A DNA stretch of 64,000 nucleotides from an uncultured Acidimicrobiia bacterium (GCA_963829165.1 CAWHIC010000003.1:22186-86185), one strand, 5' to 3'; shown: positions 912-18,157, counted from the first letter of the stretch. Numbers and translations are program-made. Notes: generated from the letters alone by a model not told the origin.

Positions 912-2342
912 TTAAGCCCCGTTGAAGTCACCAACGAGCAAACCGGTGGTGGTCTCCGAGTTCGACAACGTCACCCACGTGCCGGTCCCACCCCACCTCA
1001 CCCGCCAGCCGACACCGGTGCCGGCGGCCTGCAGAACATCGTCCTTGCCGTCCCCGTTGAAGTCACCCACGAGCAAGCCGGTTGTGGTCTCCGAGTTCGA
1101 CAACGTCACCCACGAGCTCGTCGCACCCCACCTCACGCGCCAGCCGACACCTGCGCCGGCGGCCTGCAGAACATCGTCCTTGCCGTCCCCGTTGAAGTCA
1201 CCCACGAGCAAGCCGGTTGTCGTCTCCGAGTTCGACAACGTCACCCACGAGCTCGTCGCACCCCACCTCACGCGCCAGCCGATACCTGCGCCGGCGGCCT
1301 GCAGAACATCGCCCTTGCCGTCCCCGTTGAAGTCACCCACGAGCAAGCCGGTTGTCGTCTCCGAGTTCGACAACGTCGCCCATACGCCGGTCGCACCCCA
1401 CCTCACCTGCCAGCCGACACCTGCGCCGGCGGCCTGCAGAACATCGTCCTTGCCGTCCCCGTTGAAGTCACCCACGAGCAAGCCGGTTGTGGTCTCCGAG
1501 TTCGACAACGTCACCCACGAGCTCGTCGCACCCCACCTCACGCGCCAGCCGACACCTGCGCCGGCGGCCTGCAGAACATCGTCCTTGCCGTCCCCGTTGA
1601 AGTCACCCACGAGCAAGCCGGTTGTCGTCTCCGAGTTCGACAACGTCACCCACGAGCTCGTCGCACCCCACCTCACGCGCCAGCCGATACCTGCGCCGGC
1701 GGCCTGCAGAACATCGTCGTTGCCGTCAATGGCAGCTGGCGCGTCCTTAAGGTGCAGAAAGGCGTCCGGGTAAGCAGTGGTGCCGGTGGTCAAGACACGG
1801 CGGCGGCTGCCGTAATCCCAAACTGACTCGCTGATGTAGATGGTCGTTCCGCTGACCTTCTCGACGTACGCAACGTGCCCAGCAGCACCGGCCTTGGTGC
1901 CCCACCAGGCAATCGACCCGACGCGGGGAGTGCCGTTTACCGACGCTGCGCCGAACTGACTGACGACGCGGTCACGCCAGGAGATCGCGTTCCCGCTTCC
2001 CTGGAGTTGCGCTGCGCCGTTCCGTTGGAGACGGTACGCGGCGAAGTTGGTGCAGTTTCCCTTGGTGTTCGTGAACTGAGCCCAGTACGAGCTTGTCGGA
2101 TTGAATCCCGTGTGCGAGACGCACGCGTTGCTCGCCTGGTCACACGGAAAGGGATCAGGAACGCTCGACCAGAGTTCGGCGGCACTCGCCGGAGGGGCGA
2201 GGATGATTAACAGGCAGACTGCAGTAGCGATCACCGCCCCGAGCGATGTCGACTTCCGACCCCCGTTCACGCCCGCGCTCTCCTCCGCCGTCCGACCTCT
2301 GCATTGTAGCGGCTGCCATCCCCGAGCGCTTCCGACCGTCAT
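912..2342 (-). CDS. Secreted CHAP-domain amidase/peptidase fused to six FG-GAP/VCBS-like repeats
   Basis: 476-aa ORF with signal peptide (AVIATAVCLLIILAPPASA). The CHAP-like N-domain has NCTNFAAYRL (Cys) and GHVAYVEKV (His). Six 45-aa units follow (GDFNGDGKDDVLQAAGAGVGWRVRWGATSSWVTLSNSETTTGLLV). Confidence 0.75.
   Translation of the reverse strand: MTVGSARGWQPLQCRGRTAEESAGVNGGRKSTSLGAVIATAVCLLIILAPPASAAELWSSVPDPFPCDQASNACVSHTGFNPTSSYWAQFTNTKGNCTNFAAYRLQRNGAAQLQGSGNAISWRDRVVSQFGAASVNGTPRVGSIAWWGTKAGAAGHVAYVEKVSGTTIYISESVWDYGSRRRVLTTGTTAYPDAFLHLKDAPAAIDGNDDVLQAAGAGIGWRVRWGATSSWVTLSNSETTTGLLVGDFNGDGKDDVLQAAGAGVGWRVRWGATSSWVTLSNSETTTGLLVGDFNGDGKDDVLQAAGAGVGWQVRWGATGVWATLSNSETTTGLLVGDFNGDGKGDVLQAAGAGIGWRVRWGATSSWVTLSNSETTTGLLVGDFNGDGKDDVLQAAGAGVGWRVRWGATSSWVTLSNSETTTGLLVGDFNGDGKDDVLQAAGTGVGWRVRWGGTGTWVTLSNSETTTGLLVGDFNGA
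921..1730. repeat. Six tandem, near-identical 135-bp coding repeats
   Basis: gttgaagtcacc recurs at 921, 1056, 1191, 1326, 1461 and 1596 (exact 135-bp period). Only a few substitutions separate the copies. Confidence 0.9.
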
Positions 2343-3007: not shown

Positions 3008-3413
3008 TTTGCCTGCTCCTCTGCCATCTCTCTGCCGTCGCCGTAGTAGACAGGCTACGCCGCTGGCCCGGTAGGACACCGCCTGTAGCATCCGGGGACC
3101 GGACCTTCGGAGTCCTCGACGACACGTCCGGCAGCCACCGCAAGCTCGACCCGGCCGAGGGCCTGCAGGACGCCCAGCACGACACCGGCGGCCTGAGCGA
3201 GGTGCAACGGCGACCGCCGCTTGGGCGACGACCCTGACGAGTCGTTTGAGGAATCATCAGACAACCGGTCTGCCTACAGCTGCGTCGCCCGCCGGAATCA
3301 GCCCTCAAGCCGACGGCATCGAAAACCGAGTACGCAGCGGCGGGCCACTGCGCTTCGACCCGATCCCAGCTAGCGCCGAGCCCCCTCACCGGACTCTCGT
3401 GAAGCGGGCGGGG

Positions 3414-5483
3414 CTAATGATCCGTCATCGCTGCCCAGCGCGGTTCCTGGACCGGCGTTGCCACTAGTGGTCCCTCCGGTGGAATCGTCCTAGCGCCCAA
3501 CACGATGAGGCCGGGCACGTCGGCGAGCGGATCGGCAACAATGGCGATGCGCCACGGCACGCTGCCGGTGAGAGCCTCGAGCTGGCCAGCAAGGTACGGT
3601 CCGACCGCAGGACCCGAATTCTTCGGAGCGAGGATGAAGTCGACCATCACCGTTTCGAGCCCAGAATTGGATGCCTGGGCCCAGCCACGCTCAGCGCGTA
3701 TCTCCGCGGCATGGGCCGTGACCCACGTCACATAGTCGAGGGCCTGGAGCACACCCTTGACGTCGGCGGTCCCCACCTTCGTCTCGATCACGTGGAGCAT
3801 GTTCGTTTGGTCAAGGGCCAGGAAGTCGATGAATCCCGGCCGCCACCCGCCGCGCCAGACGGGGTATTCCCTACAAATCTGTGAAGCCTGGAGGCCCAAC
3901 TCAGGTAGACCCGTCGATGCGAGAGCGGCCTGCATGCGGTGCTCGAGGTGGCCCTTGTCGTGTCCTGCGAGTCGCTTCCACACGGCGTCGGCCACCCGGC
4001 GCTCGACTTCCGCCAGCTGCACCGGGGACAGTTCTGCGTCGACCGTGAGCACCAAGGCGGACGTCTCGCCCGGTGGAGGGCTGCCGTAATCGACACCCGC
4101 GTGGATCGTTACGCCGTTTCGGGTCCGAGCGATCCGAACGACCTGTCGGCCGAGGCAGTGCCATGCCAGATACGCCTGGCGATGGGCACGGGCGAGCGCC
4201 CAGTGGCTGTCGAGATCACGCAACAGCCGCTCGACGAGCACGTCACCACACTTGAGGTCGTGGGTATAGGTCGATCTGAGCGGACGCGTTCTGGCGACGG
4301 CAAGGATCTTGGCTCGGGACGGGATGACCCTCGGTCGCGGTTCAAGGTCGTCCCAGTAGGTGAAGACGCGCACCGGAGTATCGATCCACGGCAACCGCTC
4401 GAGTGTCAGGGTGACGTGTGTCTCAGGCAGAACGAGCACCAGGTCGCGATCGCGTTGCCACGCGAGGGCGTACGCGAGCACCTCGTCGGTGACGTCGACC
4501 GGCTCATGTGCGTCGACGACGACAACGAGGAGCTGATCGGCACGATCGCAGAACCATCGGGCCTTGGAGGTGAGCGGCCGGCCTGGAGAGAAGGCGATGA
4601 GTCCTGGGGCGATCCGGGAGGCGAGGTGATGGGCGATCGGCTTGAAGGCCTCGAAGGTGACGAGGGCGCGTTGTGTCTGTGTGCCATAGAACGGCGCCGG
4701 CTCGCCGGCCACGGCTTCTCGCCAACGTGCTCCTGTGTCGGGATCTCCGACCTCGAAGGCCTTGTCGTCGATGTAGAGCCTTCCCGCTGCTGGCTCGACT
4801 GCGAGCAATGGCAGCCCATCCGCGAGCAGGAACCAGAAGCGGTACTCGGGCAGTCCGAACAAGTCCCCGGGCGCACGGATGCAGGCCTCGTTCGCGGCGG
4901 GAACGGCACGGAAGAGGTCGGCGCGGCGACCATCGGCGTCGGATGCGTCCGACATGCCGCTGCGCCACTCCCATGTCCGGCAATCCCGCAGACCGACGCC
5001 GGTGCTGATCGACCGGGCCATGAGGCCCAACCCCGCCGCCATCGTGGTGGTCGCCAACTGAAGGGTTCCCGTGTCGGCCACCCACTGGGCGGCATCTGCG
5101 ATCGGCATACCGTGCTCGAAGTCGTGTAACAGGTCACGCGGCTCACGAGGCCCCTGGCCGAAGACGTGCACACGGCCGGGCCGGTTGACATGGAGATATG
5201 CGGGTCCGCGTGTGTCGTCGGGCTGTTCGCCCAAGTGCAACTCGACAGTGTCGTACTGACCGCCGCCGGGATGTATCTCCACGACCCGGCCAACCCTTGT
5301 TCGGGAGGCGATCTCAGCGACAAGGCGCCATGTCAAGATCTCGGCCCGCTGTCTCATGCCGCGAAGGTTCCACTGCGAGGGGAGGCCCTCGTCCGCTAGC
5401 CCAGGAGTGTCGACGACGCCCGTGGGGTCCTCCTGTCCTCGGGCCGGGACACCGAGCCGGAACGACCCCGATGTCCGACTCAT
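3414..5483 (-). CDS. Large hypothetical protein with a C-terminal RecB/Cas4/NucS-type PD-(D/E)xK nuclease motif set
   Basis: 739-aa ORF; start placed at MSRTSG (ATG 5483), uncertain. The C-terminus reads FIDFLALDQTNMLHVIETKVGTADVKGVLQALDYV, which fits D..ExK..QxxxY. The N-terminal two thirds match nothing I recognise. Confidence 0.5.
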   Translation of the reverse strand: MSRTSGSFRLGVPARGQEDPTGVVDTPGLADEGLPSQWNLRGMRQRAEILTWRLVAEIASRTRVGRVVEIHPGGGQYDTVELHLGEQPDDTRGPAYLHVNRPGRVHVFGQGPREPRDLLHDFEHGMPIADAAQWVADTGTLQLATTTMAAGLGLMARSISTGVGLRDCRTWEWRSGMSDASDADGRRADLFRAVPAANEACIRAPGDLFGLPEYRFWFLLADGLPLLAVEPAAGRLYIDDKAFEVGDPDTGARWREAVAGEPAPFYGTQTQRALVTFEAFKPIAHHLASRIAPGLIAFSPGRPLTSKARWFCDRADQLLVVVVDAHEPVDVTDEVLAYALAWQRDRDLVLVLPETHVTLTLERLPWIDTPVRVFTYWDDLEPRPRVIPSRAKILAVARTRPLRSTYTHDLKCGDVLVERLLRDLDSHWALARAHRQAYLAWHCLGRQVVRIARTRNGVTIHAGVDYGSPPPGETSALVLTVDAELSPVQLAEVERRVADAVWKRLAGHDKGHLEHRMQAALASTGLPELGLQASQICREYPVWRGGWRPGFIDFLALDQTNMLHVIETKVGTADVKGVLQALDYVTWVTAHAAEIRAERGWAQASNSGLETVMVDFILAPKNSGPAVGPYLAGQLEALTGSVPWRIAIVADPLADVPGLIVLGARTIPPEGPLVATPVQEPRWAAMTDH

Positions 5484-5935
5484 CCTGCTTCGGCATGAAC
5501 GCGGGATCGCTTGAGGGGTCGTGTCTATAAGGCTGCTCGTGCCCCGGCTGGCCGAAATTCGACCCCCTTCCGGAGACACCACCCCGGTTGAGGCGGTGGC
5601 GCTGCTTGCTGGTGCGACCGGTAGGCGGAGCACCTGGGCGCCAGGGTCACTCGCGGCGCCGACGTCGCCGTTGACCGTGGCGGACTGAAGGCGTGCAAGC
5701 AGTCAACGGCTGAACCTCCGACATCGATCAAGCGGGCATTCGTCACGCTGCACACGAGCCCGAGGAACACGATCACTGAGGCAGCGATCAGGGTGGCGAT
5801 GGTGCGGGCGTGCACCTCCCGCCAGAACGATTCCTCGCCCTGCCGTTGAAGGTGTCGAGCCGCCGTCGCATCGGGCAGGGCCTACGAGCAGATGACCTTT
5901 CAGGGTCGATCCGGGAGTAGGAACGACCGCGACGT

Positions 5936-6157
5936 CTAGGTGCTTCGACCCATGGCGTCTCGGCCGCACTGGTCGCACCCGCTGTCGATGATCTGCTTAT
6001 CCCCCCGCATGTGGGTGGCGTGGGCGTGCATCAAGCCGGAGCAGACGGGGTTCTGCAGGTCGCAGGGCTCGGGGTAGGTGTCCCAGCAAGCCGGGCAACC
6101 CTTGTCCCCGGGCACGTGCGGCTGTCCGGTGAGGTCAGCCATGAAGGCCGTCGGCAT
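5936..6157 (-). CDS. Small Cys/His-rich (zinc-ribbon-like) hypothetical protein
   Basis: ORF 5936..6271; start uncertain (ATG 6157 or 6142). Contains GCPACW..C..C..HAHATH..CDQCG. No convincing SD seen. Confidence 0.3.
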   Translation of the reverse strand: MPTAFMADLTGQPHVPGDKGCPACWDTYPEPCDLQNPVCSGLMHAHATHMRGDKQIIDSGCDQCGRDAMGRST

Positions 6158-6565
6158 GTAGTCGACGGTAGTTTCGATATCAGGCGGTAGCTGCTGGCCG
6201 GTGGTCGAGCCACGAGGAGTGCCTTCTGCATGTCCGAGGGGTCTCTGCCATGACCAGGACCCGGCCGTCACCGGTTCTCTCGCCAGTGACCCGGGTCCAC
6301 CTCCAACGCTTCATGGATCTGCGATGCCAGATCAGCTTCCGAGCACCTCGAGGTGGTCGCCGACGCCGGTCCGTCGCCGGTTCGTGGGCGACGACTCCGA
6401 CGGTTCGTTCGGGGAATCATCAGAACAGACGAGGTCGTCGGAGGAAGGCTGGAACGATTACTTGCTCACCTCCGGCGCTTCAGCCGGCACTATCCACGAG
6501 CGGCTCCTGCACCCCAGTGGCGTGTGCGCCCCGGATGATGACCTCCGACAGCGCCGATCCAGGCT

Positions 6566-7030
6566 CTACTCGCTCGTCTCCTCAGTGCTGTGGTTGTCGT
6601 GATTGCCGGCAATTGCCTCGGGATCAGGACGCGTTGATAGAAGCGAGGCCGCAGTGAGACCCATCCCGTTGTCGACTCCGAGTTCCGCAACCTCCGCCTT
6701 CGGCCGCTTGAACGGGCGCGCCGCGGCCACGGAACCGCTTGTTCCCACGGACCCTCCCGGAGACGAACTCGGCGCCGAATGGCTCCGACGATGAGATCCG
6801 CTCGTCGGCCCGCGTGCGACACTTGAAGCGTCCTCTGACTTCCGGGCTGATCGGTCCGGTCGAACGTCCAGTGACATAGCAGCCAATACGAGAACGGAAG
6901 TTGGCGCTGCGCGGAGGTCGCCGAGAACCCAGGCATGCGCATCAGAGTTTTTTAGCGAATCCACGAGTGACTTTGGCCCGACACGTCGGCGCCGCAACTC
7001 TGCGGCCAGCTGTTCCGCACTAACCTGCAA
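6566..7030 (-). CDS. Hypothetical protein with one predicted TM segment
   Basis: TTG start at 7030 preceded by GGAGGAGGA. Sequence LVSAEQLAAELRRRRVGPKSL..APTSVLVLAAMSL, then a Ser/Gly-rich tail. Overlaps the upstream ORF by 79 nt. Confidence 0.4.
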   Translation of the reverse strand: MQVSAEQLAAELRRRRVGPKSLVDSLKNSDAHAWVLGDLRAAPTSVLVLAAMSLDVRPDRSARKSEDASSVARGPTSGSHRRSHSAPSSSPGGSVGTSGSVAAARPFKRPKAEVAELGVDNGMGLTAASLLSTRPDPEAIAGNHDNHSTEETSE

Positions 7031-7386
7031 CCATCCTCCTCCGGTACGAGATCAGGAGACTCTCCATCGATGAACGCTACGAGACTTTCTCGATCGCAAT
7101 CTAGGATGGTGCGAATCATCTTCTTAAGGGATAAACGCGTGGCTGTCGCAACTGCCTTAGTACTTCGCCGACTCTGATGCCCAAGAGGCTCGCGTTGTCG
7201 GGCCCCCTGGTTGATCTCCGTCGCTCGATTCACGATGATAAATCTCAAATGACGAATGGTGTCCAGCAACCGGATTCCCCTAGGTAGGTCTGTCCGGCGT
7301 ATGGGTCCGCAAGTAGAATTCTCCCCGGCCTCGCTGCACGTCCATGGCTCAGATGCATTCATGAACGCGGATTGGCCAATGATCAT
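6952..7386 (-). CDS. Hypothetical protein, possible HTH
   Basis: ATG 7386 directly follows the DnaA TAA (TAAATG). STKAVATATRLSLKKMIRTIL resembles an HTH. The last ~26 aa look out of frame relative to ORF 6566..7030. Confidence 0.4.
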   Translation of the reverse strand: MIIGQSAFMNASEPWTCSEAGENSTCGPIRRTDLPRGIRLLDTIRHLRFIIVNRATEINQGARQREPLGHQSRRSTKAVATATRLSLKKMIRTILDCDRESLVAFIDGESPDLVPEEDGCRLVRNSWPQSCGADVSGQSHSWIR

Positions 7387-8769
7387 TTAGCCTCCTCCGA
7401 TGCGACGCGTCAGCTCGGTAACCTGCTCGTAGAGGATTCCGCGCTCCCGCATTAGATCGCCTATTTTCGACACGCCATGTATGACAGTTGTATCCTCACG
7501 ATCACCAATAGCGCGCCCAATCCCAGCATAGCTGAAGTCGGTCATTTCCCTTAGGACATACATAGCGACCTGGCGGGCGGTAACCAGCGACCGACTGCGA
7601 CTCTTGCTGCACAGCTCCTCGACAGTGAAACCAAACATCTCAGCAGTGGCGTCCATCACATTTTTAGCTGTCACCTGGTGCGGAGCCTTGGTCGCGATGA
7701 GGTCGCCTAAGACGTTCTCCGCCATCTGAAGAGTTAAGGGAACGGAGTTGAGGCTGGAAAACGCGGTGACTCGGTTCAAGGCGCCTTCAAGCTCCCGAAT
7801 GTTGTCCGGGAGGTGCGTGGCTATGTACACAAGGACGTCGTCGGTGACGACGGCGTCCTGCAAAGCTGCTCTCCTGCGAAGGATAGCCAGCCGTGTCTCG
7901 AGGCGGGGAGGCTGGATGTCCGTGACGAGGCCCCACCCAAACCGGCTTCGCAACCGCCCCTCCAGGGTGGCCATCGCCTTAGGGGGGCGGTCTGAGGAAA
8001 TGACGATCTGGCGGCCGGAGGAATGCAAATAGTCGAAGATGTGAAAGAACTCCTCCTGAGTTTGCTCTCTGTTCTCGATTAGCTGGACGTCATCGATAAG
8101 CAGCAAATCGCAATGCCGGAAACTGAGCTTGAACGACGCTTGGCTGTTCGTTCGGACAGCCTCGATGAAGTCGTCCAGGAACATTTCCGTGGAGGTATAT
8201 CGCACGTACTTCTCGGGATAGATTCTCCGGACGTAATTGCCAATTGCGTGCAGGAGGTGGGTCTTTCCTAGTCCGGCCTCGCCGTAGATGAACAGTGGAT
8301 TGTAGGAGTTAGCTGGTTGCTCGGCGACGGCCACCGCAGCGGCAGCCGCAAACTGGTTGGACTCGCCAAGTACAAAGGTGTCGAAGACGTAGGTGGGGTT
8401 GAGGAGGGAGATCTCATCCCGTACTCTGTGTAAGGCGCGGTCGTCACACCGTGTGGTCCCATAAAGCGTGGTGCCCTGATCGACGTCGGAATCATCGGCA
8501 ATCACAATAGACAGGTCGGGCCGCACCTCCACGATAAGGTCGTGCGACTCGCCGGTAACCTCGGCGAGGATGTCCTCGACGAAGCGTCGATAGCGATTCT
8601 CGATATGCTGCTTCGCCGTCGCATGCGGTACTCCGAGGACGAGTTGATGACCCTGCATGCGGGGATGTGCTGCCTCCAGCCACGACTTGGCCACGCCGTC
8701 AGGCATCCGACTACTTAGCGCGTCGATACAGGCGCTCCATAGACCCTCGGCCTCCGCTGATTCAGTCAA
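7387..8769 (-). CDS. dnaA: DnaA-family replication initiator, full four-domain but divergent, in a low-GC island (probable paralogue)
   Basis: Walker A GEAGLGKTHLLHAIGNY; Walker B/box LLIDDVQLIENREQTQEEFFHIFDYL..GRQIVISSDRPP; SRFGWGLVTDIQPP..ETRLAIL; NIRELEGALNRV. Domain IV reads ARQVAMYVLREMT..IGRAIGDREDTTVIHG. TTG start overlaps the upstream stop (TTGA). Confidence 0.85.
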   Translation of the reverse strand: MTESAEAEGLWSACIDALSSRMPDGVAKSWLEAAHPRMQGHQLVLGVPHATAKQHIENRYRRFVEDILAEVTGESHDLIVEVRPDLSIVIADDSDVDQGTTLYGTTRCDDRALHRVRDEISLLNPTYVFDTFVLGESNQFAAAAAVAVAEQPANSYNPLFIYGEAGLGKTHLLHAIGNYVRRIYPEKYVRYTSTEMFLDDFIEAVRTNSQASFKLSFRHCDLLLIDDVQLIENREQTQEEFFHIFDYLHSSGRQIVISSDRPPKAMATLEGRLRSRFGWGLVTDIQPPRLETRLAILRRRAALQDAVVTDDVLVYIATHLPDNIRELEGALNRVTAFSSLNSVPLTLQMAENVLGDLIATKAPHQVTAKNVMDATAEMFGFTVEELCSKSRSRSLVTARQVAMYVLREMTDFSYAGIGRAIGDREDTTVIHGVSKIGDLMRERGILYEQVTELTRRIGGG

Positions 8770-9266
8770 TCCGGTCCCGACAAGTCGTCAGGCCGGAAAA
8801 TGTCGTGAGGCTCTTGCTCCAACTCAAGTTCGAATATATGCTGAGCTTCTTCTTCATTGTCGGGCTTTGGCAACTGCGTAATGGAACCATGAGATCTATG
8901 AGAGACAGCCTCGACCCTCGTCGGCTGATCTCCGACGACAGAGGACAAGTATCCCTTCGGCAGCTCCGTGGATTGAAACCCGACATCCAGGAGGAACTCG
9001 CCCCCAACACGCAACGATAAGACCAAGCCACGCTCGGCGAAAACAGTACGACAGTACTGATAAGCCATGAACCCAAGAAGCCCTAGTACTGCGCCGATCG
9101 TTCCAGCAGCCCAGGCCAGGCCGATATTCCACGCAAGACCCGTCGCCGCCGGGACCACAGCCCCAGATAGAAGGAGAAGGGCCGGATAGATGTGTCGCGG
9201 AGCCTTCCGATGACCGCAGTTGTCGTTGCCCAACCGCTCTTGACGGTGAGCGACTCGGCCGTCCAC
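8766..9266 (-). CDS. Small two-TM membrane protein
   Basis: Part of ORF 8766..9542. Start placed at GTG 9266, six nt after a -10-like hexamer. TM segments YPALLLLSGAVVPAATGLAW and AAGTIGAVLGLLGFMAY; acidic C-terminus. The high-GC 5' extension of the ORF looks non-coding. Confidence 0.45.
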   Translation of the reverse strand: MDGRVAHRQERLGNDNCGHRKAPRHIYPALLLLSGAVVPAATGLAWNIGLAWAAGTIGAVLGLLGFMAYQYCRTVFAERGLVLSLRVGGEFLLDVGFQSTELPKGYLSSVVGDQPTRVEAVSHRSHGSITQLPKPDNEEEAQHIFELELEQEPHDIFRPDDLSGPD

Positions 9267-9272
9267 AGCGTG

Positions 9273-9301
9273 ATCATTGTCCTGCTCCCGGACCTTGTCA
9301 A
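9273..9301 (-). promoter_or_regulatory. Sigma70-like promoter candidate for the DnaA-containing operon
   Basis: The minus strand reads TTGACA (9301-9296), a 17-nt spacer, then AATGAT (9278-9273). GTG 9266 lies 6 nt downstream, which would fit a leaderless transcript. Confidence 0.3.
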
Positions 9302-9399
9302 GCGGTTCTCTAGGACTTATCTCGTTCTTGTCCCACCCTGGCCTGCGCAGGGAACGCAGAGACCTACGGTGGGGTCTGCTGCGTTGAGCTGCCAGTCCC

Positions 9400-10956
9400 G
9401 GCGAGGTCCGGGGCCCGAGTGAAGAGCATGGCCCGTCGCCACCCTCGCCAGTCCCCGCCCTTTGCCCCGCCGCCGAGCGCGCCTCCACTGAGGTGTGAAT
9501 CAACCCGGAGGCTGCCGCGAGGACGCGCCGGAACAACCCCAAATCGGGGCGGAGCCCCGAGACGGCGTCCAGTCAGGCGGCGGAGGGTTCGAGGGTGACC
9601 TTGTGGCCCATGGCCTCGAGTTGGGCCACGAGGCGCCTCTGGTGGGCAGTGCTGGTGCGGCGCTTGTCGAAGTAGTCGCCGCCGAGCTCGTCGTAGGGCT
9701 CGCCGGTTGAGAGCAGGTGCCAGGCGATGACGAGGATGGAGTGTCCCACCGCCACCGCCGCCCGCCCCGGTCCTCGCCGGCCACGGATGCGGGCGTAGTG
9801 GGCGGACAGGTAGGTGTTCTTGGAACGTCCCGCCGCCTGCGCTGCCTCGACGAGGGCGATCCGCAGCCATTTGGACCCGTAGCGGCTGCGGCCCGAGCGG
9901 TGCTTGCCGGCGGACTCGTTGTTGCCGGGGCACATGCCCGCCCACGACGCCAGGTGACCTGCGGTCGGGAAGCGGGACATGTCGGTGCCGATCTCGGCCA
10001 GGATCACCTGGGCGCTGCGATAGCTCACCCCGGGGATGCCGACGAGGAGCGTCACCGCCGCTTCATGAGGGTCCTGCAGCTTCTCGATCTGCTTGGTGAG
10101 CTCGTCGATGGTGGCGTCGGCCTGGTCGATGCGGGCCAGCATCGCCCGGCACAGCAGGGCATGGTGGCGGTTGAACCGTCCCGCTAGGGCGTCTTTGAGG
10201 TCGGGGATCTTGGAGCGCATCCGGCCCTTGGCCATCTCCGCCAGCACGTCGGGATCGCGCTGGCCGGCCACGAGGGCGTCGATCATCTCCCGGCCCGACT
10301 TGGTCAGCACCGACGACGCCACCGACGACAGCTTCACCCCGGCGTCCTCCAGCACCTTGTGCAGGCGCTGCGTCTCCCGGCCTCGCTCCTCGATCACCGA
10401 CTTGCGGTAGCGGGTCAGGTCACGTTGCTCCCGGGTGGGGCGGGGCGGGATGAAGGAGGGCCGCACCAGACCGTGCTCGATCAGCTGCGCTCCCCAGCAG
10501 GCGTCGGCCACGTCGGTCTTGCGCCCGGGCACGTTGCGCATGTGGCGGGCGTTGATGACCCACACGTCGTCGATGGCCTCTTCCAGAATCCAGTGCACCG
10601 GCTTCCAGTAGACGCCGGTGGCCTCCATGCCGACGAGTGTCACCCCTCGCACGACCAGCCAGTCCGACAGGACAAGGAGCTGCGAAGTCGTGGTTCCGAA
10701 CTGGGCGACCTCCTCTCGGCGGCCACCATCAGCATCGGGTGTTCGGGCACAAGCCATCACCGTGTCCCGATGCACGTCCAAGAACGCGCAGCGCTCGACC
10801 ACCACCTGCATGTCATCCCCCTTCCGCTCGGTCACCAACGACGTGCTGGCCGGATTGGGGGCCTCGTCATGAAGAGTCTGAGGTGCGTGCTCGAGGCAAC
10901 AGGACGGAGCGCCCGAGACCCCCGCGTCAAGCTAACAACGGGCTCCGAGCGCCATA
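9400..10956 (-). mobile_element. IS110-family insertion sequence (ends approximate)
   Basis: Single DEDD-type transposase gene plus flanking non-coding DNA. No terminal IRs are expected for this family. The right limit is set by the IS21 target duplication at 10957; the left limit is a guess. Confidence 0.5.
9573..10811 (-). CDS. IS110 family transposase
   Basis: MQVVVERCAFLDVHRDTV.. is a typical IS110 N-terminus (ATG 10811 with AAGGGGGA SD). The C-terminal transposase domain has GIPGVSYRSAQVILAEIG. Confidence 0.9.
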   Translation of the reverse strand: MQVVVERCAFLDVHRDTVMACARTPDADGGRREEVAQFGTTTSQLLVLSDWLVVRGVTLVGMEATGVYWKPVHWILEEAIDDVWVINARHMRNVPGRKTDVADACWGAQLIEHGLVRPSFIPPRPTREQRDLTRYRKSVIEERGRETQRLHKVLEDAGVKLSSVASSVLTKSGREMIDALVAGQRDPDVLAEMAKGRMRSKIPDLKDALAGRFNRHHALLCRAMLARIDQADATIDELTKQIEKLQDPHEAAVTLLVGIPGVSYRSAQVILAEIGTDMSRFPTAGHLASWAGMCPGNNESAGKHRSGRSRYGSKWLRIALVEAAQAAGRSKNTYLSAHYARIRGRRGPGRAAVAVGHSILVIAWHLLSTGEPYDELGGDYFDKRRTSTAHQRRLVAQLEAMGHKVTLEPSAA

Positions 10957-11063
10957 GTCGAGTGTCAAGGGCCAACAGGACCTGAACGGTGGCGGCCACG
11001 AGAACCGCGCGGTGACGGTCACGAGAACTGCGCGGCCACGGCCACCAGATCTGAACGGGGTCA

Positions 11064-11837
11064 TCAGGCCAGGGGCGACACCCCCTTGCCCGAGAGGGCC
11101 TGGGCCAGGCGCACGCTGTCGCCCTGGGTGGCGCAGAGATGGGCGTGGTGCAGGAGGCGATCGACGGTAGCGCCGGCCAGGGTCTTGGGCATGATCTCGT
11201 CGAAGCCGGACGGGTGCAGGTTGGAGCTCACGGCCACGCTTCGCTTCTCGTAGGCGGCGTCGACGAGGCGGTAGAGGCCCTCGGCCGCGTCGTGGGCCAC
11301 CGGCAACAGCCCGATGTCGTCGACCACGATCAGATCCGCCCGCAGGATGCGGGCGATGGCCCGGGTGACGGAGTCGTCGGCCCGGTGGCGGCGGACCAGC
11401 ACCCCGAGCGACTCCAGGCTGAACCACGCCACCCGGCGCCCGGCTTCGACGGCGGCGTGGCCGAGAGCCTCGAGGAACATCGTCTTGCCCGTCCCCGACG
11501 GGCCGCACACGACCAGGTTCTCGTGGCGGTGGATCCACTCCAGGCTGCGCAGGGCGGACTGGGTGGGGGCGGGGATCGAACTCAACGACGGCTCCCAGGC
11601 GTCGAAGGTCTTGCCCGCGGGGAAGCCGGCCGCGGCCAGGCGGGTGGCGGCCGAGGAGCGGTCCCGGCCGGCCACCTCCTCCACCAGCAGCACCCGCAGC
11701 ACCTCGGCCGGCTCCCACCGCTGGGCCCGGGCCGTGGCCAGCACCTCCGGCGCCATCTTGCGGATGTAGGGCAGGCGCATCCGTCGCAGCAGGGCCTCCA
11801 GCTCGGGCTCCAGCGGCGGCGGCTCGGGCGCTCTCAC
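11064..11837 (-). CDS. istB: IS21 helper ATPase IstB
   Basis: Walker A VVCGPSGTGKT, Walker B LIVVDDIG, and the typical IstB N-terminal helix LEALLRRMRLPYI. GTG 11837 overlaps the stop of the upstream small ORF (GTGA). The longer 369-aa track ORF has an Arg/Pro-rich junk extension. Confidence 0.9.
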   Translation of the reverse strand: MRAPEPPPLEPELEALLRRMRLPYIRKMAPEVLATARAQRWEPAEVLRVLLVEEVAGRDRSSAATRLAAAGFPAGKTFDAWEPSLSSIPAPTQSALRSLEWIHRHENLVVCGPSGTGKTMFLEALGHAAVEAGRRVAWFSLESLGVLVRRHRADDSVTRAIARILRADLIVVDDIGLLPVAHDAAEGLYRLVDAAYEKRSVAVSSNLHPSGFDEIMPKTLAGATVDRLLHHAHLCATQGDSVRLAQALSGKGVSPLA

Positions 11838-12064
11838 CGGTGCCCGCCCTCGGCCCGGCGCCGGAGCTCGGACCCGTAGCGGCCCAGGGTGTCGACGACG
11901 GCCAGCACCGATCCCCGGTGGTTGTCCTCGACGAAGTCGACCAGCTCGGCCATCACCTCGTCGCCGGCGTGGCGCAGCCAGTCCTCGAGCTGGCCCAGCA
12001 GCCAGTGCAGCTCCTCGACCTCGTCGGGGGCGAGGGTCACGGGGTGGGACGCGTCGAGGTTCAT
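11834..12064 (-). CDS. 76-aa acidic ORF between istA and istB, translationally coupled to both
   Basis: ATGA overlap with the istA stop (12061-12064) and GTGA overlap with the istB start (11834-11837). The composition is protein-like and helical (DEVEELHWLLGQLEDWLRHAGDEVMAELVDFVED). Confidence 0.5.
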   Translation of the reverse strand: MNLDASHPVTLAPDEVEELHWLLGQLEDWLRHAGDEVMAELVDFVEDNHRGSVLAVVDTLGRYGSELRRRAEGGHR

Positions 12065-13542
12065 CGCCCGAACCCCTCCCAGGCGCCGGTGCCGGACTGG
12101 AGTGTGTGGTCCTCGCTGGCCTGGCGCGCCTCGCCTGAGCTGGCCCGATGAGCGAGGATCGACGCCACGTCACCCTCGGCGAAGCGGCCGTAGACGGCGG
12201 CGTGGCCGAGGGCCCAGTTGACGGCCTCGGCCCCCGACAGTCGGGCCAGGGCCACGGCGTCGGCCATCTTGGCCCGCACCCGGCTCGCGCCCGCGGCGGC
12301 CGCTTCCTTGAGCCACAACGCCGCCCCCTCGCCGATGGCCAGGAACTCGGCCTCGGCCGGGTTGGTCGGCACCGGGGTGCGGTTGAGCGGCCCCTCCGGC
12401 GCGGGCGGGAAGTGGGCCGGGTCGATGCGGGGGTTGCCCGGCGTCGTCCGCTGGTGGCGGGCGACCTCGGCTGGGCCGTCGGCGCCGATGTGGGTGATGA
12501 CTACCTCGTCGCCGTGGTAGCGGACCCACACGGTCTCACCGCCGAGGCGATGGGGCGCCGAGTACTGGCACCAGTCCAGCGCCACCATGGGCTGAGGGCA
12601 GCCGACGACCCGGGTCTCGCCGAAGGCGGCGGTGAAGGGCCGCTCGGGCAGGCGATGCAGTCGCCGCGTTTCCTCGACCAGCATCTCGGCCGGGGCTCGC
12701 CGGGTGACCCGGTGGCTCCGGGCGTTGATCTCGTTGCAGAACGCCGAACATGCCGCCTCCAGCGCGGCCCAGTCGGCGTCGTCGGCCAGCAGGTTGGCGT
12801 CGGTGGGAACGAGGTCGGCCTTGGCCACGCGCACCGTCGCCTCCGAGCCGCCCTTGGACGGGGCGTCCGCCGGCAGGCACGTCACCACCGTCAGCCCGTA
12901 GTGGCTGGCGGCGGCCACCATGTTCGGGTTGCGGATGGCGATGCGGGCGACGTGGTCGACGGTGACCGTCTTCTCGTTGTCCGTCAGGCCATAGGTGGGA
13001 CAACCACCGAACCGGCGCAGCGTGGTGTCGATGCAGGCCAGTACCGTGGGCAGGGTCTTGTCCTGGATCGGGATCACCACCCGGAACCGGCTCCATGACA
13101 GCCAGGCGCAGAACAGCCAGGTGGCGGCCCCGTCGATCACGGGCCCGGCGCCGAAGTCCCACTGGAACCAGAGGCCGGGCTCGGGCACCCACGGGCGGTG
13201 CACCCGGCGGTGACCGGCGGCCCACGCTGTGCGGGCCAGAGCCACCGCACGACGGGTGGTCCGCTCCGAGCCCTCGTAGCCCAGCGCCACGAGCTTGTCG
13301 TGGGCGACGTCGGCACGGATCTTGCCGTTGCTGGACTGCATCCACTCCTCCACCTTGGGGAGGAACTCGTCGATCAGCTGGGGCCGGCGGACGGACGTGG
13401 CCGTCAGCTCGCCGGCGTCGCGCCGGGCGACCCAGTGGGCCACGGTGTTGGGCGAGCAGCGGGCCAGCTCGCCGGCGTCTCGATAGGAGTTGGTCAGGTC
13501 GAAGGCTTCGAGTATCTGCATGATTTCCTCGCGATGCTTCAC
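12061..13542 (-). CDS. istA: IS21 transposase IstA
   Basis: 493 aa. N-terminal HTH (SYRDAGELARCSPNTVAHWV) and a DDE integrase core (WQWDFG..DNEKT). Confidence 0.9.
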   Translation of the reverse strand: MKHREEIMQILEAFDLTNSYRDAGELARCSPNTVAHWVARRDAGELTATSVRRPQLIDEFLPKVEEWMQSSNGKIRADVAHDKLVALGYEGSERTTRRAVALARTAWAAGHRRVHRPWVPEPGLWFQWDFGAGPVIDGAATWLFCAWLSWSRFRVVIPIQDKTLPTVLACIDTTLRRFGGCPTYGLTDNEKTVTVDHVARIAIRNPNMVAAASHYGLTVVTCLPADAPSKGGSEATVRVAKADLVPTDANLLADDADWAALEAACSAFCNEINARSHRVTRRAPAEMLVEETRRLHRLPERPFTAAFGETRVVGCPQPMVALDWCQYSAPHRLGGETVWVRYHGDEVVITHIGADGPAEVARHQRTTPGNPRIDPAHFPPAPEGPLNRTPVPTNPAEAEFLAIGEGAALWLKEAAAAGASRVRAKMADAVALARLSGAEAVNWALGHAAVYGRFAEGDVASILAHRASSGEARQASEDHTLQSGTGAWEGFGR

Positions 13543-14470
13543 GTGCTCCTCCTGGGTGCCGAGGGTGCTTGAGCACGCCCAAAGACACTCGGGAGGAGCG
13601 CCCGGAGGGTGGATACCTCCGGTGACGATCAGGGAGCGATGCAGATCTGGTGGCCGTCGCCGCGCGGTTCTCGTGTCCGCCAGCGATCAGCTTCGTGACC
13701 GTCTACGCGCAGGTTCTCATGGCCGCCGACAGTCGAGCGACGTCTGCCCGGGCCGACACGCACGATTCTCATCCGCCGAGGGCGGCTCCGCCAGGGGCCA
13801 TGGCAGCTAACACCCACTCCGTCGCCCACGCGTGCAGCACCGGCCTGGACATCACCGCCGTCGCCCCGTCGCTGTGGGGACCGCAGGCAATTGGCGGGTG
13901 TCGTCGGTGGCGGTGCGACCAGGGTCGACCGACAATCCCGACGCCACCCGCAGGTTGTGGTACCGCCACGCCACCCGCCAGCCGGATTACGACGCCGCCA
14001 AATCGACCACTGCTGGACCTGCGACGTCGGACGGGCTTCGGACTGCCGGCCTAGGCCACGCCCGACCGCGGACGTTGACTTGCAATGGGCCGGTGCCAGT
14101 CTCCCCCCGTTGCCCAGTAGTGATCGAGGGTCTGCACGGACCAAAGTTCATCTAGAAACCGTTGCTGGCGCGCCGCGCTCTCCGACACATGTGTGCACCG
14201 TGCACCGATTCGGCGATCTGCTCGACCAGCAAGGCACAGAAGAGTGCCCCAGAACGCGCGTCAACGCGATCTGGCGTGGGTAGCACCAAAGCCGGGTAGG
14301 TGGGACACGAGCTTCGCCCCCCCCCAGGGAGGACGATGTCTGGGCGACGGCCCCCAGGAGTCGTCTGACGAAACATGAGAACAAGCGACCGAGCCGGTCG
14401 GCTGGCCGGAACGGGATGCTGCTTTCGCTCGGCCTGTGTGGCCTGGGAAATCCAACCCGGATGATCTCCA

Positions 14471-14514: not shown

Positions 14515-16898
14515 TGCTGTTTAGGTTGGCCCGAGCAGTCAGCGTGTCTGGGTGCTCGTCCCCAAGTAGCCGCTCGTGGTCAGCCACGACCTGCTCGCCA
14601 AGCGCGATTGCCTCTGCCGATCGTCCAGCAGACCCGTAGAAGCGGGTCAGGTTGGCCCGCGCAGCAAGCGTGTCCGGATGATCGCTCCCGAGGAGCCGCC
14701 AGTTGTCGGTTACGACACTGCTCACCCGCGGCAATGGCTTCCGTCGTGAGCCCGGCGAAATCGTAGGACAAGGCGAGGCTCGCTCTGCTGCTTAGGGTGT
14801 CATGGTGCTCTCGCCCAAGTACTCGCTCGCGGGCAGCAAGGACAGCCTCGTCGATCGGAATAGCTTCGACAGCTCGACCGCTTAATCGAAGCGATACGGC
14901 GACGTCAGCGCGAGCCCGCAGGGTATCCGGGTGCTCTGGGCCGAGGATGCGCTCGCGTTCAGCCAAGACCTCAGCGCCGATGGCAAGGGCCTCCGCCAGT
15001 CGTCCGGCGGACCAGTAGGAAACGGCCAAGTTGGCGCGCGCTGTCAGCGTGTCGGGGTGCTCGGGACCGAGGAGGTTCTCTCGGTCGGCCAGCACCTCCT
15101 CTTTCATTGCGATGGCCTCTGATGTCCGACGAGCCGACTGGAAGGATGCGGCCAGGTTGGCACGCGCTGTCAGCGTGTCGGGGTGCTCGGGACCGAGATG
15201 GATGGTGGCGAGGTCCAGCGCCAAGGTCCCGACGTCGATTGCTTGCGCGAAAGCGCCCCGACTTCGGCTGAAGCTGGTGAGGTCGTTGAGGACCCACCAC
15301 ATGTCACGAGCGTGTTCGGGGAAAGCGGCATTGGCAGTTGCGAGCGCCGCAAGAACGTGCGGGATCAGCGCACTGAGGACCGGCCAATGAGGGACGTTCC
15401 TTGGTTCGCCGTCGGCCTGTGCCCGAAGCAGGGAGATGGCGCAGCCGGCCGCCCCCGAGGCAGCCTCCCGGCGGGCGGCAGCCTGAACCACACGATGGAC
15501 GCTGATGGTGTCGGCGCCAGTGAGCTCTACCAGCGAGTAGCCGTGCAGAGCTACCAGGGCATCGTCAAGTTCGACAGGGGTGGCGTGTAAGTACGGATCG
15601 CCCGCCTCGGCCCTGGCGCGCAGCCAAGCGCAGGGCAGCCCGTCAGAACCTAGGAACCCGAGCACAGCCAGCAAGCGCCGCGCGCAAGGGGCCTCGGAGG
15701 TGGCCGCGTCAACCGATACCCGCCACGCCGTCGCGGCCGTGTGCTCGTAGCCGAGCGGCCGAGTTCCCTCTGGAAACGGCTCGGCAGCTGCATCGTCGAA
15801 GAGCCGTGTGTATTGGCCGAATCGCCGGTTGGGTGCCCGTTCGACCCACGCGGCGGCCTGTTCGAGCGCCAGTGGCAACCCACCGAGGCGATCGAGAACC
15901 GCTCGGAGATCCTCGTCAGCGGCGAGCGGATTGAGCGGGCGTACACGATCCCGCAGGAACGCATCGGCAACATCGTTGGGGAAGGCATCGACAGCGAGGA
16001 CGCTCCCGATATGGTTCATGTTGCGGTTCCGGGACGTGATTAGGGTGATACCACCGCCGCGGCGAGGATGCCACGGCTCGACAGAAGCCTCGTCGGAAGC
16101 GTTATCGAACACCAGCAGCCACGTCCGGTCCGTCGCCTCTAGCCATTCCCGTACGGCATTCGCCGTCACCGACGGGTCGTCATCGGTGATCAGGCCGACT
16201 CGCGGTGCCAGCTCCGCAAGGTCCGCCACAAGCACTCCCGGCCGCTCCGCCCGTACCCACCACACCACGTCGAGTCGGTGGCGATGAGCATTAGCCAGCG
16301 CGACGGCGGCGGTCGTCTTTCCGACGCCGCCCATACCTTGGATCGTTTGCGTCAGGACAGCCCGACGATCGCCCAGGATGGCCGCTCCCAAGCGCTCGAG
16401 GAGCATCTCGCGGCCTCTGAAAACCAGGGGTAGAGCGGGGACTCGACTACACCAGACTTGGGTCCCCTTTACCGCTGCGATGGCTACTGGGTTGCGAACG
16501 ACCTCGGCTATAGCCTCGGCTACAAGCGCGGTCTCGCTCTCATCGATGTAGTCGATCGCGTGCAATGAGTGTGTTCCGTAAGGCAGGTCGACGCCGGCCT
16601 GCAATCGAACCGGAACGAGGCGAGCACCCTCACGCCGGACCTGGCGGAGAGCGATGATCAACTCGTCATTCTCGTATCCAGCATCAAGGGTGCTCGAAGA
16701 CACCAGGACAACGACAACCGCTGCGGATCGGAGATGTACGGGAAGCAGGCGGTGCCAGTTGTCTCCTGGCCGCAGCACCGCGTGGTCGAAGAAGACCGAT
16801 AACTCCCGACCGACGAGCGCCTGGTACAGGGCACGCGCCCTTTGGCGGTCCGGGGACGCGTACGCGAGAAACACGTCCCACCGCCCAGGTTGGCTCAC
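14471..16898 (-). pseudogene. TIR - NB-ARC (STAND NTPase) - TPR protein, frameshifted near 14717 and apparently truncated at the 3' end
   Basis: TIR: WDVFLAYASPDRQRA..VFFDHAVLRPGDNW..VVVLVSSSTLDAGYENDEL. P-loop GMGGVGKTTAAVALA and LLVFDNA. At least 6 TPR units (LGPEHPDTLTARANLA..). The repeat series continues in ORF 14471..14734 after a 1-nt shift (GEQ|VVTDNWRLLGSDHPDTL). The last unit breaks off at ARANLNSIKT. Confidence 0.8.
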
Positions 16899-17166
16899 GC
16901 GCGAACGCTACGCGAACCGACAGGGCTGCAGCTGTGCCCATGACGCGGAGTGCTTCGTCCGCAGACGGATCCCCTCTCTCTCGGAACAGGCACACCTGGT
17001 AACCGGTGGACTGATGTGTGGGCGACGATCCCGAGGTTTCATTCGTCAAGCGTCATGCCCGCGCTCGGTATCGGCGCCTGCCACCGTGCGGCAAGGGGCG
17101 TATCACCGGGGATCGCACCTGAAGGAGCGGCTCGCTAGCGCCGAATTCCTTCGACCGGCATCTTTC

Positions 17167-17913
17167 CTACGTGTCGAACTGGGCCCAGTCTTCGGGGTTG
17201 TCCTCCACGAAGTGGTCGAGAACGGTGCCGTCGACGCCGTCGACGAGGACCAGGCCCCGCTGCTTGGGCGGCTCCTCGTTGGAGTAGAGGAGGATCCGCC
17301 ACGTCGGGCGACTGCGGAGGCCGCGCCAGCCGAGCTGGGCCGACGCGTGGCCGACGGGGAAACCGACCTGGCCGGCGGCCGCCACCAGGGCGTCGCCGTC
17401 GCGCACCGACAGGGGCCAGGCCGCTGCCAGGTGGTAGGCGCCGATGGCCAGGAGGACGACGGCTGCGCCCAGCATGCCTTCGTTGACCAGGACGGCGTCG
17501 CCGCCACGGACGGCCCACAGGACGAAGCAGGCGGTGGCCACCAGCAGGTAGACGAAGGCCGGCCACCGGCGACGACGGATGTCGGGGAACGTGTATTGGC
17601 CGACGTATGCGGTGACGTCGAGCTCGGCGGGAAGGGAGTCGCCTGCCTCACTGGCGTGGTCACCCGTCGGGGCCGGGACCGGCACGGCGTCGGGAGGCGG
17701 AATCGCGGCCGCGGCAGGGGTGGGGGCCGCGGCGGGGGGCGGTGCGGAGGCGGGGGGCGGAGCGGGGGTCATCGCTGGGGTGTGGGACGGCCCTGGGGTC
17801 GGAGTCGGAGTCGGGGTCGCGGCCGGGGTCGGGGTCGGGGGCGGAGTTGGAGGCTGGCCCGGCGCTGACGTCGGAGTCGGGGTCGGGGTGGGGGCCGGTT
17901 GATCGTCTGCCAT
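17167..17913 (-). CDS. Membrane protein with a Pro/Thr/Ala-rich N-terminus
   Basis: ATG 17913 (MADDQPAPTPTPTPT..). Two TM segments (WPAFVYLLVATACFVLWAV, GMLGAAVVLLAIGAYHLAAAW) precede a globular tail. Confidence 0.55.
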   Translation of the reverse strand: MADDQPAPTPTPTPTSAPGQPPTPPPTPTPAATPTPTPTPGPSHTPAMTPAPPPASAPPPAAAPTPAAAAIPPPDAVPVPAPTGDHASEAGDSLPAELDVTAYVGQYTFPDIRRRRWPAFVYLLVATACFVLWAVRGGDAVLVNEGMLGAAVVLLAIGAYHLAAAWPLSVRDGDALVAAAGQVGFPVGHASAQLGWRGLRSRPTWRILLYSNEEPPKQRGLVLVDGVDGTVLDHFVEDNPEDWAQFDT

Positions 17914-18157
17914 CTCGGGGGCCAGCGTACGCTCGTCCCGTGAGCGATCTGCCGCCCCCGCCGCCGGAGCCGCCGCCCCGCCCGCCACTCGAGCCGCCCG
18001 GCACGCCGCCGTCGTCCCCTTCGCCGGGACCCTCGTCCGGCCCGCCCCTCGAGCCGCCTGGCACACCGCCGTCGCCCCCATCGCCGGAACCGCCGTCCGG
18101 TCCGCAACTCGCGCCGGCCGGACCGCCGCGCCGCCAGTCGAACCGCCCCGCCCGCCA

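Follow-up and report, generated by a model that had tools for sequence, protein, structure and literature searches.

A divergent, probably additional dnaA gene with altered DNA-reading residues in a low-GC block of an uncultured Acidimicrobiia genome

The locus

The sequence considered here is a 64,000-nucleotide stretch of DNA from an uncultured Acidimicrobiia bacterium (GCA_963829165.1, CAWHIC010000003.1:22186-86185), referred to below as the window, with positions counted from its first letter. Towards its left end, a block of comparatively low G+C content carries, on the minus strand, a gene for a protein of the DnaA family. An earlier reading made from the sequence alone, here called the original prediction, had regarded this block as a foreign four-gene operon in which a "second-type" DnaA is accompanied by dedicated membrane and helix-turn-helix (HTH) partners. 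Our analysis supports a more restricted view: the gene probably encodes a divergent extra member of the DnaA family, still under selection and with an altered DNA-reading signature, and the block is probably not a new four-gene system.

The features of the block and its surroundings are collected in Table 1. The open reading frames (ORFs) that had been proposed lie on the minus strand where the original prediction placed them, and the short junctions it described, namely the TTGA overlap (8769-8766), the TAAATG junction (7389-7384) and a GTG at 9266 six nucleotides past AATGAT, are all present. Its argument for foreignness rested on four hand counts of G+C in 60-nt lines (27, 28, 26 and 49), which a recount reproduced exactly; 27/60, 28/60 and 26/60 are the minima of the block, and 49/60 is the host comparison line. 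Averaged over 6950-9300, the block has a G+C content of 57.2% (mean 34.3/60), compared to 72.7% (43.6/60) over 17-64 kb, and is nested within an island of 65.8% G+C which spans the window from position 1 to approximately 17 kb. G+C at third codon positions (GC3) is 0.70 in dnaA, while the mean of 32 host ORFs is 0.93 and the dnaA genes of relatives range from 0.85 to 0.95. The block is thus compositionally foreign, as had been claimed.

Table 1. Features of the low-GC block and of the island around it.
Feature	Coordinates	Strand	Basis or remark
Low-GC block	6950..9300	.	57.2% G+C inside a 65.8% island and a 72.7% chromosome
dnaA, probable extra copy, 460 aa, TTG start, domains I-IV (domain I tentative; short domain II)	7387..8769	-	TIGR00362, PF00308 and PF08299
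Candidate 166-aa ORF with two transmembrane segments	8766..9266	-	hydrophobic hairpin at about residues 26-78; stop overlaps dnaA start (TTGA)
Candidate 144-aa ORF	6952..7386	-	ATG right after dnaA stop; GGAGGAGG 5 nt upstream
154-aa ORF, TTG start at 7030	6566..7030	-	mostly outside the low-GC block; unsupported as a gene
Promoter-like TTGACA-N17-AATGAT	9273..9301	-	10/12 positions match
IS110-family transposase gene	9573..10838	-	Pfam DEDD_Tnp_IS110 and Transposase_20; directly upstream of block
IS21-family element	10982..13690	-	Pfam IstB_IS21, Mu-transpos_C_2; terminal inverted repeats
TIR-NB-ARC-TPR (STAND) gene	14580..16898	-	Pfam TIR_2, NB-ARC, TPR_10/12; weak PADLOC TIR matches
739-aa ORF, weak NucS-like PD-(D/E)xK-type C-terminal region	3414..5633	-	Pfam and PADLOC
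CHAP + FG-GAP protein gene	912-2342	-	six 135-nt tandem repeats at 917-1727

Identity and completeness of the DnaA protein

The protein scored 464.1 bits against TIGR00362, well above the equivalog cutoff of 343.9, with profile positions 1-437 covered, and Pfam detected both Bac_DnaA (PF00308, E=7e-67) and Bac_DnaA_C (PF08299, E=7e-23). The full DnaA of the original prediction was therefore confirmed. At the N-terminus, the putative domain I reached 16.5 bits against Pfam DnaA_N and so stayed under the cutoff of 24.6, although residues E8, L10, W11, C14, L18 and P23, which are invariant in the clade, are present. Within the AAA+ region, G166-T170, D226-D227, S258-R261, R272/R274/R276 and R325 are the same as in aligned, intact canonical relatives. 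Because the Walker A (GxxGxGKT) and Walker B (DD) motifs, sensor I, the arginine finger of box VII and the arginine of sensor II are all intact, ATP binding, ATP hydrolysis and oligomerisation are predicted to be retained, and on mechanistic grounds the protein can presumably still perform all three. Scans with Rfam yielded only sub-threshold noise, including an AsdA-like match within dnaA at E=0.39.

The choice of start codon affects how complete the protein appears. Conserved N-terminal residues E8, L10, W11, C14 and L18 are retained only if translation begins at TTG 8769, which has a weak Shine-Dalgarno (SD) sequence, and an in-frame TGA lies at 8790-8788. The NCBI/ENA annotation of the source contig offers a 439-aa DnaA starting at Met22; because the conserved residues require TTG 8769, this annotated protein is probably 21 residues too short.

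Ancestry and host clade

The best homologues other than the protein itself were canonical chromosomal DnaAs of uncultured Actinomycetota, with identities of 66-67%, or 69-73% over gap-free columns; against the DnaAs of this clade, identity ranged from 61 to 67%. The four nearest relatives whose genomic context was examined (L002, L003, L084 and L085) are canonical origin loci on contigs of 66-71% G+C. Upstream lie divergent rnpA/yidD-yidC genes, together with jag-gidB-parAB on the three long contigs, and downstream of dnaA lie dnaN-recF-dciA-gyrB, joined by gyrA in L003 and L084. The remaining locus, L085, is a 3.6-kb contig with rnpA, yidD and a downstream ORF which is cut at the contig end and which we take to be dnaN. 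Similarity to these relatives detected by blastn ends at the dnaA coding region.

In a neighbour-joining tree, the window DnaA falls within the chromosomal DnaA lineage of the host clade, beside P0025 and on a long branch. The term "second-type DnaA" is thus an overstatement. A peptide-pattern scan, based on universal motifs, of genome contigs with DnaA returned only generic DnaAs of at most 47% identity.

Proteins encoded elsewhere in the window offer a measure of the distance to be expected of vertically inherited genes. IlvN and GatB are each 93% identical to those of relatives, ThrRS 90-95% and IlvC 97-98%, and on sequence grounds the host belongs to the same uncultured Actinomycetota clade as the nearest DnaA relatives. 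The relative of IlvN is located on a contig of 1,269,674 bp, which we take to be the contig that also carries the canonical DnaA P0020, at a locus featuring rnpA/yidC and dnaA-dnaN-recF-gyrB. Window DnaA and P0020 are 64% identical, while P0020 and P0013 are 84% identical. As 64% contrasts with the 90-98% seen for housekeeping proteins, the window DnaA does not appear to be the host's orthologous initiator, and we regard such a role as very unlikely. We take the gene to be an extra copy of dnaA, of related but not recent ancestry, and infer that the host has a canonical copy besides.

The canonical DnaAs of the clade (P0002-P0020 and P0025, from metagenome-assembled genomes of uncultured Actinomycetota and Acidimicrobiia-like bacteria) share with the window protein its apparent four-domain architecture and identical AAA+ motifs. 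Unlike them, the window copy is not located beside dnaN, recF, gyrB or rnpA, is not accompanied by DnaA boxes, has a much shorter domain II and a lower GC3, and has accumulated substitutions at approximately four times the rate.

DNA-reading residues and selection

According to the passage of PMC7561715 which cites Fujikawa 2003, base-specific contacts in Escherichia coli DnaA are made by R399, P423, D433, H434, T435 and H439. We mapped these residues by aligning the window protein, without gaps, to 1J1V, the structure of domain IV from E. coli. The corresponding positions in the window DnaA are R, A, E, D, T and H, such that half of the six, the equivalents of P423, D433 and H434, have changed. 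Among the 120 best homologues, none of the other 118 proteins that were readable has ED in place of DH in the RDHTTV signature. H434 itself was retained in each of these 118, as well as in 84/84 phylogenetically diverse DnaA loci. Degenerate DNA patterns for GDREDTTV were also sought in JGI metagenome contigs, where the long pattern had no matches and the short one had 48, none of them encoding DnaA. Because the P423, D433 and H434 equivalents are A, E and D, the window DnaA has probably lost the ability to recognise canonical boxes.

The gene has evolved rapidly. Relative-rate tests after Tajima assigned approximately four times more unique substitutions to the window lineage (e.g. 66 versus 16, p=3e-8), and the protein has changed at 29 of the 204 columns which are invariant in 20 canonical relatives, a count that exceeds eight in no other sequence; eight of the 29 changes fall in domain IV. 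Nevertheless, the ratio of nonsynonymous to synonymous substitution rates (dN/dS) between the window gene and its relatives is 0.12-0.16, with dS saturated at 1.3-1.9 (0.3-0.8 among canonical genes). In a comparison with P0003, changes affected 14% of the invariant columns and approximately 38% of the variable ones. As invariant columns are hit less often and the reading frame of 460 codons is unbroken, selection seems to have been relaxed or redirected, rather than lost, and an ORF that remains open after such divergence would imply selection through most of the branch.

These measures are difficult to reconcile with an inert passenger, that is, a fragment bearing dnaA which was recently acquired from a relative or element of lower G+C and is now decaying neutrally, flanked by ORFs that are no more than chance frames. 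Several features would agree with such a passenger: the flanks are orphan and free of domains in any frame searched, origin features are missing, IS elements have inserted beside dnaA, many otherwise invariant positions have changed and translation relies on a TTG start whose SD is weak. However, plain decay is disfavoured because the 460-codon frame is intact, along with every catalytic motif, and dN/dS is well under 1, while the sparing of invariant columns points the same way. The H434 change, furthermore, is never seen in canonical initiators, so that the divergence probably preceded arrival and took place under a different constraint. By the same token, a fragment recently derived from the origin of another chromosome is disfavoured, because an essential initiator would not lose the H434 contact. 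We therefore consider an inert passenger unlikely, if still worth keeping in view.

The same residues are central to the main rival of the reading developed below. A neofunctionalised DnaA mimic may co-assemble with, or titrate, the host's DnaA or helicase, or may act as a transcription factor on new sites, and would in this way modulate or block initiation on behalf of a mobile element or of a defence of the abortive-infection type. Consistent with this suggestion, the ATPase, arginine-finger and domain I residues have been kept while three of the six base-contact residues have changed, and a dN/dS of approximately 0.15 speaks for a maintained function. The island also holds a TIR-NB-ARC-TPR gene and a nuclease-like gene, and the gap-free identity to DnaAs of the host clade makes mixed oligomers conceivable. 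On the other hand, PADLOC offers only generic AAA+ noise, there is neither a second instance nor a conserved partner, horizontally acquired DNA of any kind is often found close to defence genes, and an interaction with host DnaA has no direct support. The DnaA-derived interference system raised by the original prediction is viable, though not demonstrated, and in our estimation it has the lesser chance of being correct, roughly on a par with the passenger.

Origin features

As the original prediction had remarked, none of dnaN, recF, rpmH and gyrB is found in the vicinity, and tblastn searches with the neighbours of L002 and L003 detected no remnants of dnaN, recF, rnpA, yidC, dciA or gyrB in the window. 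No match to TTGTCCACA or TTATCCACA with at most one mismatch occurs inside 5.5-10 kb, and the single TCCACA core in this interval is at about chance level. Clustered 9-mers, for which a scan of the flanks had been proposed, did not rise above shuffled sequences: the flanks of dnaA (5.6-9.7 kb versus shuffles) contain no iterons, tandem repeats or over-represented 9-mers, and neither iterons nor boxes were detected elsewhere in the island. There is no sustained GC-skew switch at 6.5-9.3 kb, in a window which, at 64 kb, is too short to place the chromosomal switch.

It is here that the remaining chromosomal reading, in which the gene is the host's own dnaA at an unusual, rearranged origin, can be assessed. 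A complete DnaA above the equivalog threshold, in a 64-kb window with no other dnaA in view, is what such an origin would present. Yet the expected neighbours, rpmH and rnpA included, are missing, as are a box cluster and, within the window, a sustained skew switch at the locus. Moreover, the protein is only 61-67% identical to DnaAs of the clade where housekeeping proteins reach 90-98%, its GC3 departs from that of host ORFs, the base-contact histidine kept in all other DnaAs checked has been lost, and the examined DnaAs of the clade retain standard origin synteny. An odd chromosomal origin is, of all the explanations considered here, the one to which we assign the least credence.

Two further observations concern skew and the origins of relatives. 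Within the window, cumulative GC skew is lowest near 40 kb and climbs steeply over 43-53 kb, a long way from the dnaA block; gene orientation is the probable cause, and the pattern is too local for interpretation. In L002 and L003, two DnaA boxes form a conserved inverted pair, GTTATCCACCACCTGTGGATAG, approximately 40 nt upstream of dnaA (9930-10000), and the 218-bp spacer between dnaA and dnaN (11456-11682) contains several box-like sites and an AT-richer segment. This spacer is likely to be the oriC of this uncultured clade.

The proposed partner ORFs

The original prediction surrounded dnaA with three further genes and a promoter, and these fared less well than dnaA itself. The 166-aa ORF does contain the hydrophobic hairpin on which its description as a protein with two transmembrane (TM) segments was based: hydropathy windows of at least 1.6 start at residues 26-50, and a single-sequence AlphaFold2 (AF2) model has a helix at 26-78, with a mean predicted local distance difference test score (pLDDT) of 59. 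Its status as a gene, however, is unproven. It is an orphan with no homologue except itself and with no match in Pfam, NCBIfam or PADLOC, and gene callers differ over this region, where a 64-aa ORF in another frame and a 100-aa ORF are called. Near the block, the NCBI/ENA annotation includes only the 439-aa DnaA and the 64-aa ORF, and calls neither the 166-aa nor the 144-aa ORF.

For the 144-aa ORF, despite its good SD and the TAAATG junction, no homologue was found in 5.8 billion clustered proteins, nor at E<=0.001 when 1.84 billion representatives were searched exhaustively with phmmer. The HTH that had been suspected in it was not borne out, as neither an HTH nor any other domain was detected with Pfam, NCBIfam or six-frame Pfam searches. 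Its single-sequence AF2 model has a pLDDT of 47, and the models of both orphan ORFs are too poor for fold searches.

The 154-aa ORF had been described as a TM protein with its own SD. While GGAGGAGG is indeed present upstream of TTG 7030, there is no TM segment, the maximum 19-residue hydropathy being 1.29 against a usual TM threshold of 1.6. The ORF exhibits little frame preference (G+C by codon position 0.68/0.58/0.63), Prodigal calls just its last 60 codons on a contig of an independent Logan assembly, and no domain was found with Pfam, NCBIfam or six-frame Pfam. The promoter candidate fares similarly: the site exists, but two such sites occur in 3.8 kb, compared to 0.9 +/- 0.9 in shuffled sequences, and this is within chance.

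More general searches of the block were equally unproductive. Pfam gave nothing in 5600-7400 in all six frames, or in 8760-9580 in four frames, and PADLOC-DB 2.0 produced no match to the partner ORFs and only weak, generic AAA+ matches to DnaA (E>=2.7e-4). Codon-usage scoring trained on dnaA slightly favours the orphan frames; this scoring is biased towards open frames and was not counted as evidence.

Queries of the partner ORFs by tblastn against all DnaA loci fetched had no match. The proposed operon, in which dnaA would have its own membrane and HTH partners, thus finds no backing, as the partners lack homologues and the examined DnaA relatives lack such neighbours. The partner ORFs are thus not conserved beside the DnaA homologues examined, an outcome which the original prediction had itself named as speaking against a module. 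Either or both of the ORFs coupled translationally to dnaA may yet be genuine orphan genes, albeit with no comparative support. Were they so, the DnaA derivative, with its changed reading head and retained ATPase and oligomerisation surfaces, and the coupled ORF or ORFs may together form a device for replication interference or abortive infection, which would poison DnaA-dependent initiation of host or phage or read a new target. We consider such a device improbable.

Assembly

A low-GC block beside repeated elements invites the suspicion of a chimera, in which assembly or binning has joined DNA of another organism to the host contig at insertion sequence (IS) repeats. The source resembles a metagenome contig, and both an IS110 and an IS21 element adjoin the block. 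However, the independent Logan assembly matches 4454-11009 at 99.97% identity, across both block junctions. Furthermore, the G+C content of the island is equally intermediate on either side of the IS110/IS21 pair, the shift to host G+C at approximately 17 kb falls away from any IS element, and members of a 40-nt repeat family (at 3222, 6385, 14341 and 17018) are found to the left as well as to the right of the IS pair. A chimera is accordingly a very improbable explanation of the block.

Possible history of the gene

We tentatively favour the reading, to which we would give slightly less than even chances, that the gene is a long-maintained extra dnaA from a lower-GC mobile replicon of the clade, now stranded in an island. 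A replicon of lower G+C, most likely a plasmid or an integrative element with dnaA as its initiator, would have acquired the gene from the chromosomal lineage of the host clade a long time ago. Outside a chromosomal role, it would have remained under purifying selection while evolving approximately four times faster and altering its box-reading residues. It may then have been stranded beside core chromosomal genes, in an island since disrupted by IS110 and IS21, with its cognate origin lost or separated and an IS insertion directly upstream. Mobile replicons typically have a lower G+C content than their hosts. In this form, the decayed mobile replication module entertained by the original prediction is viable and the best explanation available to us, short of demonstration.

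Several points weigh against it. Firstly, no integrase, relaxase or partition gene, no iteron array and no further hallmark of a mobile replicon is linked to dnaA within the window, where Pfam-based scans of the island likewise found no conjugation genes. Secondly, no close relative was encountered on plasmid, phage or IMG/VR contigs (all below 60% identity): IMG/VR had no match to the window DnaA, and the plasmid and phage matches are apparently mostly chromosomal dnaA genes in very large or mislabelled records. Thirdly, the gene is a single instance, the Logan assembly representing the same DNA. Fourthly, a canonical dnaA of the host was not observed directly, the analysis having covered the 64-kb window of a 193.5-kb contig. 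Lastly, a very recent loss of function would escape dN/dS.

Known systems provide partial parallels. DnaA-like genes are described on Rickettsia plasmids and at the termini of the integrative conjugative Rickettsiales amplified genetic element (RAGE). Like the window gene, these are DnaA-derived, lie off the chromosomal origin and are carried by horizontally moving DNA. They are, however, proteobacterial, often truncated or limited to certain domains (e.g. DnaA_N only), and reside within recognisable conjugation or plasmid modules, whereas the window gene is full-length and actinobacterial, and neither mobility nor partition genes are linked to it within the window. Hda/HdaA shares the homologous AAA+ domain (TIGR03420, E=2.6e-31, 109 bits versus a cutoff of 195) and the idea of a DnaA paralogue which regulates rather than initiates. 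However, Hda has approximately 230 aa and lacks domains I and IV, while the window protein apparently keeps four domains and scores as DnaA. Our search of the literature revealed no survey of additional copies of dnaA among Actinobacteria.

If functional, the gene would constitute a natural experiment, in which the ATPase and oligomerisation machinery was kept under selection while the residues that read DnaA boxes were replaced. As such, it could show how initiator specificity evolves after capture by a mobile replicon, or how a DnaA look-alike interferes with host initiation. As a single instance with neither conserved partners nor an origin, it also counsels caution in reading tightly packed orphan ORFs as a dedicated module.

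The surrounding island

The flanks named in the original prediction (IS110, IS21, a TIR-STAND gene and a nuclease-like gene) were confirmed by Pfam and PADLOC matches. Within the IS21 element, istA occupies 12061-13542 and istB 11064-12173. Its inverted repeats (10982-11053 and 13641-13690) are complementary at 86-89% and contain 23-nt internal repeats, and the element measures approximately 2.7 kb. The 3' end of IS110 lies between 9572 and approximately 9300, only the transposase coding region matching other copies. As the IS110-family element (9573-10981) begins directly at the right end of IS21, one IS would have inserted at the other's terminus.

Weak matches to the PADLOC candidate families PDC-S66 and PDC-S11 were noted in the TIR-NB-ARC-TPR gene and the 739-aa ORF. 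For the latter, PDC-S11 reached E=2e-6 across 40 residues, and Pfam NucS_C E=0.007, a match too weak for its cutoff. With a TIR-NB-ARC-TPR gene and a nuclease-like ORF bearing such matches, the island has the appearance of a defence island. It continues past the left end of the window, which contains no tRNA gene. Past 17 kb the window is ordinary chromosome, with thrS, siderophore genes, ilvBNC, gatAB and ligA, in an order that presumably resembles Mycobacterium and Streptomyces genomes.

The 40-nt repeat TGGGCGACGACCCTGACGAGTCGTTTGAGGAATCATCAGA occurs at 3222-3261, 6385-6424, 14341-14380 and 17018-17045, with none expected by chance; two copies are near-exact, one is weaker and one partial. 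All four lie between supported island genes, downstream of minus-strand units and in one case upstream. The repeat could be an element of the repetitive extragenic palindromic (REP) or miniature inverted-repeat transposable element (MITE) kind, or a cassette boundary, and it marks the DNA left and right of the IS pair as belonging to a single island.

At the right edge of the island, 17700-18240 is very GC-rich, with 6-, 18-, 21- and 60-nt tandem repeats, and overlaps ORFs free of Pfam domains. At the left, beyond the CHAP + FG-GAP gene, a partial minus-strand gene (1-440) runs off the end of the window with a sub-threshold match to peptidase M23 (22 bits, cutoff 28.7); if this match is real, two secreted genes of the cell-wall hydrolase type stand at the island's left edge.

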